The notes under the pieces: generated by a model | Databases searched by the model: none | Seen by the model: the letters and a program-made list of their open reading frames with translations, nothing else | Told to the model about the DNA's origin: nothing | Assembly (NCBI RefSeq): GCF_003334315.1 | Contig: NZ_QOWR01000109.1 | DNA: 2,574 nucleotides | Strand: one strand, 5' to 3' | From: Escherichia coli | GTDB taxonomy: Bacteria > Pseudomonadota > Gammaproteobacteria > Enterobacterales > Enterobacteriaceae | Shown: piece after piece, positions 1 to 2,574 of the stretch | Position numbering within the stretch: position 1 is the first letter of the stretch | How the letters are laid out: each line of letters starts with the position of its first letter | Position numbers and translations under genes: made by a program

Positions 1-61
1 TGTTTTTGTCATGTGAGTCACCTCTGACTGAGAGTTTACTCACTTAGCCGCGTGTCCACTA

Positions 62-397
62 TTGCTGGGTAAGATCAATCAGCTTCCCCCTACGGAAGAT
101 AATAAACAGCCTTCTTTTGATGTTCTTGATGATGATTGGGATGCGCCTTTGCCGTGGGAGACGGAAGAAACACCTGTTTCATCAAGTGAAAAGGTAGCTA
201 ATGATAAGGAGGATGTGTTAGAGAATTTTGCCTCTCTTATCATCCAGGAGAAGACTACTAGAACAGGAGGGGCATCATTTATAGAATTTGCAACATCGTT
301 AGCCTATAAGCACAGGTTAAAGCTACCAAATGGTATTGAGGCATATTTTTCTAAGAATTACCCAAATGTATACGAAGACTTTGATCTTCCCTTTTAA
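62..397 (+). CDS. Hypothetical acidic protein (111 aa) with an SSB-tail-like C-terminal tip ...YEDFDLPF; start codon uncertain
   Basis: Open frame from TTG at 62 to TAA at 395-397. An in-frame TGA at 29-31 rules out any start upstream of 62, and there is no in-frame ATG anywhere in the ORF. No clear SD precedes the TTG, so the start is uncertain; an in-frame GTG at 215 follows an AAGGAGG at 206-212 but the spacing is only 2 nt. The N-terminal half is strongly acidic and low-complexity (DVLDDDWDAPLPWETEE). The downstream gene's SD sits 5 nt after the stop, consistent with an operon. Confidence 0.5.
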   Translation: MLGKINQLPPTEDNKQPSFDVLDDDWDAPLPWETEETPVSSSEKVANDKEDVLENFASLIIQEKTTRTGGASFIEFATSLAYKHRLKLPNGIEAYFSKNYPNVYEDFDLPF

Positions 398-413
398 AAA
401 GTAAGGAGGACTA

Positions 414-692
414 TTGATCCAATATTTAGTAAAAAATCAAGTAGACAGAATTCAGTGTAATGACACAGGAAAACGCATCTACGAAACACTTGCTTACCTC
501 TATAAAGGAAAGCCAACACCGCTAAAATATAGCGATGTGTTACATCGAGCAGGGTGCTCTGAAGATGGTTTAAAATTCTGGCTTAGACAGCTATCAAATT
601 TCGGTGTTATAGAGATTAAAGAATTATCTTTCTCTACATTCAATCTCAAAAGACTAGACAGAGAAATAGACTTCATCTATTCCACTCTCTAA
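414..692 (+). CDS. Hypothetical small protein (92 aa), possibly helix-turn-helix or winged-helix DNA-binding
   Basis: TTG start at 414 is the first possible start after an in-frame TAA at 402-404, and is preceded by a consensus SD AAGGAGG at 403-409. The frame runs uninterrupted to TAA at 690-692. The segment YSDVLHRAGCSEDGLKFWLRQL has the spacing of a helix-turn-helix (A-G at the turn), but the assignment is by eye only. Confidence 0.65.
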   Translation: MIQYLVKNQVDRIQCNDTGKRIYETLAYLYKGKPTPLKYSDVLHRAGCSEDGLKFWLRQLSNFGVIEIKELSFSTFNLKRLDREIDFIYSTL

Positions 693-733
693 AATCTCTC
701 TATGTAATTAAAATATAAAAGGAAAACATTATT

Positions 734-850
734 ATGATAGTAGCTATGTATTGGTTATTGTTCTTTCTCACGTTAGAAACATACTTCGGGGTGTTTTCCT
801 TTAAAAGAAAAGGAAAAGTAAATGGCAAAAAGAAAAAACAACGTTGTTAA
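734..850 (+). CDS. Possible small hydrophobic peptide (38 aa): MIVAMYWLLFFLTLETYFGVFSFKRKGKVNGKKKKQRC
   Basis: ATG at 734 follows an AAAAGGA at 717-723 with 10-nt spacing. The peptide has a roughly 23-residue hydrophobic segment followed by a Lys/Arg-rich tail, and ends at TAA 848-850. It overlaps the 5' end of the 822-1232 CDS in another frame. It was read by hand and is below the ORF-track length cutoff; it could be a chance ORF in AT-rich DNA. Confidence 0.2.
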   Translation: MIVAMYWLLFFLTLETYFGVFSFKRKGKVNGKKKKQRC

Positions 851-1232
851 GAAAATCGGTGATTCAGCTTCTCTTCTAAGTAAACCTAAATCTCTTCTAA
901 GACGCAAAGACTTTAAAGAGCTAGTTACGCTCACCAAGCAAAATAGCGCCCCTGGCGAATGGAAAACAGAGATTATAGAACATTCTCCCTCTGTGCCTTG
1001 TGGAGATGAATATATCGCATTACAAGAAATCTTATCTTCAACACCTGGCGTATTCTGGAAACCTAGAAAAAGAAAAGAGTATATTGTTGACAGCTCTGAT
1101 CTACGCAAATACCAGATTTTAGGATTTGAAGATTATAACCACTATGTTGGTTATCTCGCCACCAATGGCCTAAATAATTTAGTTCCAGAATTCCAGATTT
1201 TAGATAATGCTGATCACTATGGAGACTTTTAA
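822..1232 (+). CDS. Hypothetical basic protein (136 aa), Lys/Arg-rich N-terminus
   Basis: ATG at 822 immediately follows an in-frame TAA at 819-821, with AGGA at 812-815 (6-nt spacing). The frame is open to TAA at 1230-1232. The N-terminus MAKRKNNVVKK...SLLRRKD is very basic; no family recognised. Confidence 0.65.
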   Translation: MAKRKNNVVKKIGDSASLLSKPKSLLRRKDFKELVTLTKQNSAPGEWKTEIIEHSPSVPCGDEYIALQEILSSTPGVFWKPRKRKEYIVDSSDLRKYQILGFEDYNHYVGYLATNGLNNLVPEFQILDNADHYGDF

Positions 1233-1233
1233 T

Positions 1234-1572
1234 ATGAACAAAAACACGTATGACACAATTTACTCACTAATTAATTATTATGAGGATGATTACCTCCTGC
1301 CTTTAAACCGCGCTGAACTTGAAGCATACAAAGAAAACACGCCAGCGGCACTAAATGAGGCGTTTAAACACTGGGATTTAGCTGTGAATGCCTTTGAGCA
1401 CCTCTCTAAGCGTGTAGAGATGCTCTGTAAGCGTGAGAACGCATATCTAACAGCGGATCAGATATGGAGTCTCTCAAACTGGATAGAAGGTATTGAATCG
1501 GACGTTCGCTATGTAGGGGATGGCCTTGTTGAACTCGCACAACGCTTAGGCGCTGCTATCACAGAAGAATAA
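1234..1572 (+). CDS. Hypothetical acidic, probably alpha-helical protein (113 aa from ATG 1234), translationally coupled to the upstream CDS
   Basis: The ORF track starts this frame at ATG 1207, but ATG 1234 is preferred: GGAG at 1221-1224 lies 9 nt upstream and the upstream gene's TAA (1230-1232) is 1 nt before this ATG, the classic coupling arrangement. ATG 1207 and ATG 1219 have no SD. Stop is TAA at 1570-1572. Protein from 1234 begins MNKNTYDTIYSLINYYEDDY... Confidence 0.6.
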   Translation: MNKNTYDTIYSLINYYEDDYLLPLNRAELEAYKENTPAALNEAFKHWDLAVNAFEHLSKRVEMLCKRENAYLTADQIWSLSNWIEGIESDVRYVGDGLVELAQRLGAAITEE

Positions 1573-1601
1573 AAAAAGCAACAAAAAAGTTGTAAAATAT
1601 C

Positions 1602-1630
1602 TTGACATTTCATATATTGTATGTTAATAT
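1602..1630 (+). promoter_or_regulatory. Sigma-A-type promoter: -35 TTGACA (1602-1607), 17-bp spacer, TGn-extended -10 TAATAT (1625-1630)
   Basis: Perfect -35 hexamer, a 5/6 match at -10 with TG at 1622-1623 in the extended -10 position, and optimal 17-bp spacing. An A-rich tract (1571-1590) sits where an UP element would be. Predicted transcription start is near 1637. Sequence inspection only. Confidence 0.6.
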
Positions 1631-1636
1631 AATTAT

Positions 1637-1839
1637 ATAGGGTGATTATTTTTCCTTTATTGGTTCGATATTAAAAATTCTTCTTGTCGTTAAAGGGGAG
1701 TAAAATCTCCGCTCCCCGCTTCTCCTCCTTAAGTAATACTGTGTCATTTACCTCTTTTTTCCTTTGTTATGCATACATCTTGGAGTGTGCATAACATAGG
1801 GTAATTACAAAGGCGGCTTTAAATGCTGCCTTTTATTTT
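1637..1839 (+). ncRNA. Putative structured 5' leader or small RNA (about 200 nt) running from the predicted start site to the terminator hairpin
   Basis: Bounded by the promoter at 1602-1630 and the hairpin plus U-tract at 1809-1839. It contains a G-rich block AAAGGGGAG (1692-1700) that can pair with any of three CU-rich blocks (1706-1710, 1712-1717, 1721-1727), and an imperfect 10-bp inverted repeat (1767-1776 with 1785-1794). No ORF with a credible SD lies inside. I could not match it to any riboswitch class from memory. Confidence 0.3.
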
Positions 1840-1851
1840 GCCCGTTATGCA
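1766..1851 (+). repeat. Three copies of the 8-mer GTTATGCA: 1766-1773 (+), 1788-1795 (inverted, TGCATAAC), 1844-1851 (+)
   Basis: Exact 8-bp matches read directly from the sequence. The first and second copies form an inverted repeat with a 14-bp spacer; the third lies between the terminator hairpin and the 1902 CDS. Candidate operator half-sites or RNA structural elements. Confidence 0.3.
1809..1839 (+). terminator. Intrinsic-terminator-like hairpin with U-tract (AAAGGCGGC-TTTAAAT-GCTGCCTTT then TATTTT)
   Basis: The GC-rich stem GGCGGC (1812-1817) pairs with GCTGCC (1825-1830) including one G-U pair, is extended by three A-U pairs, has a 7-nt loop, and is followed by TTTTATTTT (1831-1839). 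It sits 237 bp after the stop of the 1234-1572 CDS and 62 bp before the 1902 start, so it could terminate block A, attenuate readthrough into block B, or both. Confidence 0.55.
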
Positions 1852-1901
1852 ACTTAAAAGTTGTATTTCTTACTTTAAACAAGGTAACAAGGTTTATATA
1901 A

Positions 1902-2114
1902 ATGTTGTTCTTAAATGATAAAGAGCAAATCATCAAGTATCGAGATGAAATGCTGCGAATTACTCCACAAATTACCGAAATGGTAGCTAAATACGCTGGG
2001 TGTTCTGTCGAGGAAGTAGAAAGATGTGTTGAAAAATATTTTTCTCCTTCTTCTCCGTCTACACCTTCCCTTAATGAATTAATCAAATTAAAAGCTAAGG
2101 AGATTACTAAATGA
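1902..2114 (+). CDS. Hypothetical small protein (70 aa): N-terminal helical region with possible HTH, Ser/Pro-rich linker, Lys-rich C-terminal helix
   Basis: ATG at 1902 with AAGGT at 1888-1892 (9-nt spacing). The frame is open to TGA at 2112-2114, which overlaps the next start as ATGA. Contains ITEMVAKYAGCSVEEVERCVEKY, then SPSSPSTPS, then LNELIKLKAKEITK. No family recognised. Confidence 0.55.
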   Translation: MLFLNDKEQIIKYRDEMLRITPQITEMVAKYAGCSVEEVERCVEKYFSPSSPSTPSLNELIKLKAKEITK

Positions 2115-2473
2115 TTATTGATTTAGACACTCTGTTTCCAGTTCGAAAGACTTTCACAGATATTGTAAGTTATTGTACTGATCCGTTTGCCTCTGTAGAA
2201 AGCAAGGTTTTTGCTTCTCTTCCTGCTGATGTTGAATGCGGAGACTTGATCACCAGCACGGGCGCTAAATATGTATCAGGAGATGATATCTATGTTGTTA
2301 TGAGTGAATTTGTAACGGCTGGAGAAAACAAGCCTGTAGATGTTTTACGTAGCAATGCTGGCCTTGTGTGCATTAAAGCTGATGCGCTGAATGCTGTAAG
2401 TGAAGCAGCAAAAACAGCATTAATTAAAAAAGGCTTCCAGCTTGAAGGCTTCCACTCTGTTTTCACTTCTTAA
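2111..2473 (+). CDS. Hypothetical acidic protein (120 aa), translationally coupled to the upstream 70-aa CDS
   Basis: ATG at 2111 overlaps the upstream TGA (2112-2114) in an ATGA arrangement. AAGGAG at 2097-2102 gives 8-nt spacing. Open to TAA at 2471-2473. No family recognised. Confidence 0.6.
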   Translation: MIIDLDTLFPVRKTFTDIVSYCTDPFASVESKVFASLPADVECGDLITSTGAKYVSGDDIYVVMSEFVTAGENKPVDVLRSNAGLVCIKADALNAVSEAAKTALIKKGFQLEGFHSVFTS

Positions 2474-2492
2474 TAAAAGGAATAATAATAAA

Positions 2493-2574
2493 TGATTTGG
2501 ATTGGCCCCTATATTTCCATACACTTTTTATCACTTAACCCATTACTGGTTCGCCGCCGCAGATATTCCCGTGG
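2493..2574 (+). CDS. Possible 5' end of a further CDS, truncated by the window edge (MIWIGPYISIHFLSLNPLLVRRRRYSR...)
   Basis: ATG at 2493 follows AAAAGGA at 2476-2482 (10-nt spacing). The frame has no stop through the window end (27 codons). There is no terminator between 2473 and 2493, so it would be co-transcribed with block B. Low confidence because it is short and incomplete. Confidence 0.3.

Follow-up and report, generated by a model that had tools for sequence, protein, structure and literature searches.

An IS3 left end in an Escherichia coli chromosomal island carries a predicted leader hairpin that may hide the transposase ribosome binding site

Results

An IS3 end within an interrupted gene

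The window (the whole stretch of 2,574 nt of E. coli DNA analysed here) carries the end of an insertion sequence at each edge and part of a chromosomal island between them. Alignment to known elements shows that positions 1–77, read on the minus strand, are the left end of an ordinary, known IS3 insertion sequence. These positions correspond to IS3 nt 1–77, such that IS3 nt n is window position 78 − n, and the sequence, TGATCTTACCCAGCAATAGTGGACACGCGGCTAAGTGAGTAAACTCTCAGTCAGAGGTGACTCACATGACAAAAACA, is identical at 77 of 77 positions to the IS3 copies in loci L001, L003 and L004. In BLAST searches of plasmids and E. coli genomes, window positions 1 to ~93 matched thousands of records annotated ‘IS3-like element IS3 family transposase’; the sole match in a phage collection was a 76-nt piece of IS3. 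Compared with IS3 of E. coli (IS3 family, IS3 group), the tip (TGATCTTACCC...), the 39-bp left terminal inverted repeat (IRL), the Shine-Dalgarno (S-D) sequence AGAGG and the ATG are the same over all 77 bases, and with zero sequence differences from the known element, only the insertion site is particular. The reference copy in L003, whose end is identical, carries orfA-orfB and the IRR, and is annotated with a programmed frameshift. In the window, orfB, the DDE transposase, the IRR and the other end of the element fall past the left edge.

The IRL (nt 1–39, tip TGATC...) lies at window 39..77 on the minus strand, as do all the IS3 features described below. Comparison of the IRL with the IRR in the full copy from L003 gave agreement at 28 of the 39 positions, and the match stops at nt 39 (...CTAAG-GAG). 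The S-D sequence of orfA, AGAGG, is at nt 53–57 (window 21..25), and there are 6 nt from the end of the GAGGUG run to the AUG. The orfA ATG itself (window 12..10) is 65 nt from the tip, and the annotated IS3 transposase coding sequences in L001 and L003 begin at the homologous ATG. The first four codons of orfA (insE), ATG ACA AAA ACA (window 1..12), encode MTKT, with which the annotated InsE/IS3 transposase also begins; the window edge falls after orfA codon 4, and only these four codons are inside it. Within the leader, TAAACT at nt 40–45 (window 33..38) is a candidate −10 element of a weak resident promoter, judged by its sequence. A promoter scan of the IS3 left end found no consensus σ70 promoter.

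Two side observations concern the IS3 tip. The left tip of IS3A in K-12 (L087 2227–2232) reads GCCTCTTACCC, not TGATCTTACCC, and is thus altered relative to the window copy. A GATC (Dam) site lies at window 73–76 within the TGATC tip, and another lies in the IRR; IS3 activity is reported to respond to Dam methylation.

To the right of the IS3 tip, window 78–2497 is a segment of a low-G+C chromosomal island; islands that match it at 96–97% identity occur in some 300 complete E. coli genomes. For related E. coli islands that lack IS3, the alignment to the window begins at position 78, and E. coli E400634 represents the empty site, being continuous across the insertion point. BLASTP and the empty-site alignment identify window 78..397 (plus strand) as the 3′ remnant of a 222-aa helix-turn-helix (HTH) gene, comprising its last 106 codons and the stop. 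Window position 78 is codon 117 of the HTH gene in the uninterrupted island, and residues 6–111 of ORF 62–397 match residues 117–222 of the uninterrupted 222-aa protein, with BLASTP identity of 96/107 to residues 117–222 of the protein encoded by L002 CDS 2652–3320. The TTG start and first five codons of ORF 62–397 are IRL sequence of IS3. An earlier reading of the window, made from the sequence only, had taken this as the first ORF of an operon; it is not an intact gene but a fragment of the HTH gene with an IS3-derived start. The alignments show that IS3 inserted into the chromosomal island, which is of E. coli type, and cut its HTH gene. A search of 5,426 complete E. coli genomes did not find the exact junction between IS3 and the island.

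The same sequence-only reading had drawn attention to an inverted repeat at window 13–43, and had suggested that it might be an operator or leader element for the operon of the first plus-strand ORF. That assignment does not hold: the dyad belongs to IS3, whose transposase gene, encoded by the minus strand, runs leftwards out of the window. Because the dyad is part of the mobile element that broke the HTH gene, it is not functionally upstream of a plus-strand operon. It does lie outside coding sequence, and its place is the 5′ leader of IS3 orfA. We conclude that the annotation of the window should be corrected, in that its 5′ edge is an IS3 end rather than a region that regulates an operon.

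The island has several other features of note. In other genomes it carries a recombinase gene, the HTH gene, small ORFs of unknown function, and then a major capsid protein gene. It looks like a phage satellite because a recombinase gene flanks it and the major capsid gene follows in those genomes; PHROGs searches with the six island ORFs returned no matches. A further copy of IS3 sits elsewhere in the same island, at L003 5213–6470, inside the homologue of window ORF 2111–2473, and several bovine and human E. coli strains carry IS3 at this second place. Given that the IS3 copies sit at different places, the island has been struck by IS3 more than once. A long non-coding gap at window 1573–1901 contains the best σ70-like site of the window (1602–1630; TTGACA-17-TAATAT with an upstream TG), a 16-nt inverted repeat that is 88% complementary (1761–1776/1785–1800), and a terminator-like hairpin with a T-run (1809–1833).

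At the right edge, window 2498–2574 is one end of another IS3-family element, distinct from IS3, with the tip TGGATTGGCCCCTATATTTCC... and its transposase gene on the minus strand. A K. michiganensis plasmid carries an element whose right end matches this one at 93.5% identity; the plasmid element is ~95% identical to ISEc36/ISEc27. The second element interrupts the major capsid gene of the island directly after ATG ATT (window 2492–2497). The bases outside the ISEc36-like tip are alike in the two places (window 2485–2497, ATAAATGATT; K. michiganensis plasmid L084 ~1799–1811, ATAAATGAGA), which may reflect a target preference.

A predicted hairpin over the orfA ribosome binding site

The inverted repeat is present as the sequence-only reading described it: GTGAGT (window 13–18) is the exact reverse complement of ACTCAC (38–43), and TGAGTCA (14–20) is an inverted match to TGACTGA (25–31) at 6 of 7 positions. 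A better nested stem, formed by CTCT (22–25) and AGAG (31–34), had been overlooked. A repeat search joined this stem with the outer one, giving composite arms of 13 nt (13–25/31–43) that are 85% complementary and have 5 nt between them; this composite ranked 8th among the 27 inverted repeats of the whole window. The bare 6-bp dyad is not above chance, as the window contains 37 perfect 6-bp inverted repeats with arm spacings of 3–30 nt and dinucleotide shuffles contain 27.0 ± 8.3. The composite hairpin stands out to a moderate degree. Its predicted energy is −12.6 kcal/mol on the minus strand (z = −2.78; matched by 3 of 200 shuffles) and −11.9 kcal/mol on the plus strand (z = −2.56), and only 0.7% of 37-nt minus-strand windows fold equally well. 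We conclude that the inverted repeat originally noted does exist, that as a bare dyad it is nothing remarkable, and that it lies in an element that is already known.

In RNA of the orfA sense, the outer stem of 6 bp pairs GUGAGU (nt 35–40; window 38..43), at the inner end of the IRL, with ACUCAC (nt 60–65; window 13..18), which forms the spacer between the S-D sequence and the AUG and adjoins the AUG. Five of the six bases of the 5′ arm are within the part of the inverted repeat that is common to the IRR. A 3 × 3 internal loop separates the outer stem from an inner stem of 4 bp, in which CUCU (nt 44–47; window 31..34) pairs with AGAG (nt 53–56; window 25..22), the core of the S-D sequence, around the 5-nt loop CAGUC (nt 48–52; window 26..30). 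This two-stem hairpin was both the minimum free energy (MFE) fold and the centroid fold, whether the hairpin was folded alone or within the whole 77-nt end.

The predicted cost of exposing the ribosome binding site depends on where the RNA begins. For RNAs with a start no later than nt 34, which included read-through RNA with the window's own flank, opening the S-D sequence costs 5.2–6.3 kcal/mol and opening the whole ribosome binding site costs 8.4–9.3 kcal/mol. For RNAs that start from nt 41 onward, the corresponding costs are 2.7–3.1 and 3.5–6.1 kcal/mol. A search of the whole window against Rfam returned no family at E ≤ 1. In agreement with the sequence-only reading, which had noted that the dyad is not a typical terminator, a U-tract is absent 3′ of the dyad on both strands, and a terminator scan found no terminator-like site at the dyad on either strand.

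Conservation of the leader among IS3 relatives

We compared the leader across 80 loci encoding OrfA relatives of 62–100% identity, drawn from Enterobacterales contigs with one genome per species. The same two-stem MFE fold was obtained for nearly all 60 distinct left ends in which an IRL is present; only one degenerate copy and two distant groups, whose OrfA is no more than 71% identical, departed from it. Mean pairwise difference (π), calculated from a 56-sequence alignment, was 0–0.07 across nt 32–47 and nt 53–58, as compared with 0.40 at orfA third codon positions. Within these conserved stretches, π was 0–0.04 for both the 5′ arm of the outer stem and the 5′ half of the inner stem and at most 0.07 for the TAAACT sequence, and the S-D sequence was invariant in close relatives. 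Variation was concentrated in the loop, where π was 0.17–0.40 and indels occurred; loop variants included CAACC, CUACC, UAACC and CAAGUA, among others. The conserved block reaches 8 nt (nt 40–47) past the part of the inverted repeat that is common to the IRR.

Across 32 distinct leaders, 96.2% of pair cells form standard pairs. However, we found no pair with compensatory double changes among these leaders, and column shuffles scored equally well. Because there are no double changes and the shuffles are equal, conservation of sequence and conservation of structure are inseparable here: the pair counts from the 32 leaders show a conserved potential for pairing rather than a structure proven by covariation. 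All but a few of the one-sided changes are compatible with G·U pairing, and 24 G·U cells pair in the sense RNA only, such that 96.2% of cells are paired in the sense RNA versus 90.0% in the antisense RNA. The 3′ arm variants GCUCAC, ACUCAU and UUACUCAU keep or extend the pairing in the sense RNA. Leaders with a frequent 2-nt deletion (GACUC AUG) still form six pairs, in which the AU of the AUG takes part, and the stem reaches 8 bp in the GAUUACUC variant. Note that these hints from indels and wobble pairs rest on perhaps 5–6 independent compatible events, as against about 3 disruptive ones. The distance between the arms is 26, 27, 28, 29 or 30 nt among the relatives.

The sequence-only reading had raised the question of whether the dyad is conserved in homologous loci, and the two nested repeats that it proposed fared differently. 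The outer dyad is conserved. The inner dyad, TGAGTCA/TGACTGA, was rejected as a structure, since its two central pairs are broken in 24–25 of the 32 distinct relatives.

More distant IS3-group elements, with OrfA 62–71% identical (L067, L068, L071, L078, L070 and L079), have other small hairpins, which pair the inner end of the IRL with nearby sequence and leave the S-D sequence mostly free. In four loci (L022, L023, L058 and L074), the sequence upstream of orfA is unrelated to the IRL except for the last few bases before the ATG; these are probably truncated or rearranged elements. The leaders of K-12 IS150, IS2 and IS911 had no common S-D-sequestering design when compared, and because these elements do not share such a design, no family-wide argument is possible.

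Discussion

The inverted repeat belongs to an IS3 left end, as the alignments show, and the best explanation overall, to which we give an even chance, is that it forms a leader hairpin there that hides the ribosome binding site of orfA. The more specific proposal is that, in any RNA that includes nt 35–65, the hairpin makes translation of OrfA and the OrfAB transposase less efficient; we judge this to fall just short of an even chance. The affected RNA could be a transcript entering from outside the element, or one begun in the outer part of the IRL. Such an RNA would fold so that CUCU pairs with the S-D sequence and the inner end of the IRL pairs with the spacer between the S-D sequence and the AUG, and initiation of OrfA and OrfAB translation would be reduced on the folded RNA. 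If a weak resident promoter uses TAAACT as its −10 element, transcription of the native mRNA would begin within the hairpin, and this mRNA would escape. Silencing would then affect read-through RNA only, as in the fold-back scheme that has been put forward for IS10 and IS50. The earlier suggestion of a structured RNA element at the 5′ end of an operon is supported in part: a structured RNA element is plausible in the leader of IS3 orfA, but the operon to which it had been assigned was the wrong one. A stronger version of the proposal is that the hairpin is a selected, previously undescribed translational gate that uses the inner end of the IRL as the arm against the ribosome binding site, and that keeps external transcripts silent and internally started ones active. 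We regard this version as possible but doubtful. The hairpin would also be present in a transcript from a circle-junction promoter, and this fits uneasily with a role in protection only.

Pairing of the S-D sequence, conservation of the fold, indels that are compatible with pairing, the asymmetry of G·U pairs in favour of the sense strand, and the precedents of IS200, IS10 and IS50 all count for a function of the hairpin. To our knowledge, no IS3 transcription start and no measured effect on IS3 translation are known, and we know of no antisense RNA for IS3. In the literature that we searched, whose reach ended short of the original IS3 papers, no IS3 leader hairpin or transcription start was found.

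The main rival to translational attenuation is that the dyad is a by-product, in which the inner end of the IRL and the ribosome binding site are each conserved for their own reasons and are complementary without a selected function. In this rival the inner end of the IRL, a possible OrfA site and P_IRL promoter, and the S-D sequence would each be constrained separately, and we consider it a serious contender, if somewhat less than evenly probable. Most of the stem halves have a constraint of their own: nt 35–39 lie in the inverted repeat segment that is common to the IRR, and AGAGG (nt 53–57) is the S-D sequence. Conservation of nt 40–47 could reflect a −10 element or an OrfA site, and at the equivalent position IS2 has an OrfA docking site and P_IRL (PMC3299598). 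The by-product explanation also fits with the complete lack of compensatory double changes and of any excess over shuffles, with the frequency of 6-bp dyads by chance, with the loss of the hairpin from relatives whose OrfA is 62–71% identical, and with the leaders of IS150, IS2 and IS911, in which the hairpin is not a common design. It accounts less well for the spacer between the S-D sequence and the AUG, CUCA[C/U], which is under no other known constraint but whose pairing survives a deletion, an insertion and substitutions that are compatible with wobble pairing. The concentration of variation in the loop and the bias of G·U pairs towards the sense strand also count against it.

The remaining alternatives place the function of the dyad in DNA, on the other strand, or in termination. 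A dimeric protein such as IS3 OrfA might bind GTGAGT/ACTCAC as an operator and repress the transposase promoter; OrfA proteins have an HTH, OrfA of IS2 sets a precedent at the inner end of the IRL (PMC3299598), and the 5′ arm and its neighbouring bases are highly conserved. However, the operator option of the sequence-only reading fits poorly with an arm distance that ranges from 26 to 30 nt among relatives, a variation too great for a rigid dimer site, and several variants pair by G·U only. Since the arm distance varies and wobble pairs are meaningless in duplex DNA, a two-arm DNA operator is unlikely. Moreover, the half-sites would be about 25 bp apart centre to centre, with the second arm downstream of the S-D sequence and far from any plausible −10 element, and we give this alternative only a slim chance. 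Control of plus-strand ORF 62–397 and the genes that follow it, by an operator or leader RNA, has in its favour the position of the dyad 5′ of the ORF and the predicted folding of the plus-strand RNA, but the chance that it is correct is negligible. The dyad is IS3 sequence that is absent from uninterrupted islands, such that the empty-site comparison refutes this alternative, and the ORF is a truncated remnant with a start codon derived from the insertion sequence. In addition, the plus strand of window 1–100 contained no promoter-like site in our scan, and the wobble variants are unpaired on this strand. The left end of IS200 has a transcription terminator (PMC4513863), and the position of a stem-loop at the left end of IS3 raises the possibility that it similarly shields the element from outside transcription. 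An intrinsic terminator is nonetheless excluded by the absence of a U-tract on either strand; the scan was also negative and the stem is short and interrupted, and we consider this alternative highly improbable.

If the hairpin works as we propose, IS3 would join the insertion sequences that limit translation of their transposase by hiding the ribosome binding site, and would extend a familiar theme only modestly. The general concept of such control appears in the literature for IS10/IS50, IS200, ISPpu9 and P_IRL of IS2. IS2, which belongs to the same family, has a weak promoter, P_IRL, just inside the IRL, and OrfA binds the inner end of the IRL just upstream and represses P_IRL; these elements are defined at the DNA level, as an extended −10 and a TAAATAA docking site (PMC3299598). 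IS3 resembles IS2 in having a conserved block at the same position, at and just inside the inner end of the IRL and upstream of orfA. However, the sequence of this block differs in IS3, which lacks an extended −10, and the IS2 leader does not have the same hairpin. In IS200, a stem-loop in the tnpA 5′ UTR pairs with the S-D sequence and lowers 30S binding, as demonstrated by toeprinting and mutagenesis; this stem is long (nt 69–138) and forms part of the native mRNA, where an antisense sRNA and Hfq act alongside it (PMC4513863). By comparison, the IS3 hairpin has 10 bp and is predicted from sequence. IS10 and IS50 have an inverted repeat near the left end, with the distal arm over the ribosome binding site, and transcripts that include both arms are proposed to be silenced. 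The IS3 dyad likewise lies near the left end with its distal arm over the ribosome binding site. For IS10 and IS50, sequestration of the signals for translation initiation has been proposed (bioRxiv 10.1101/2025.01.24.634351).
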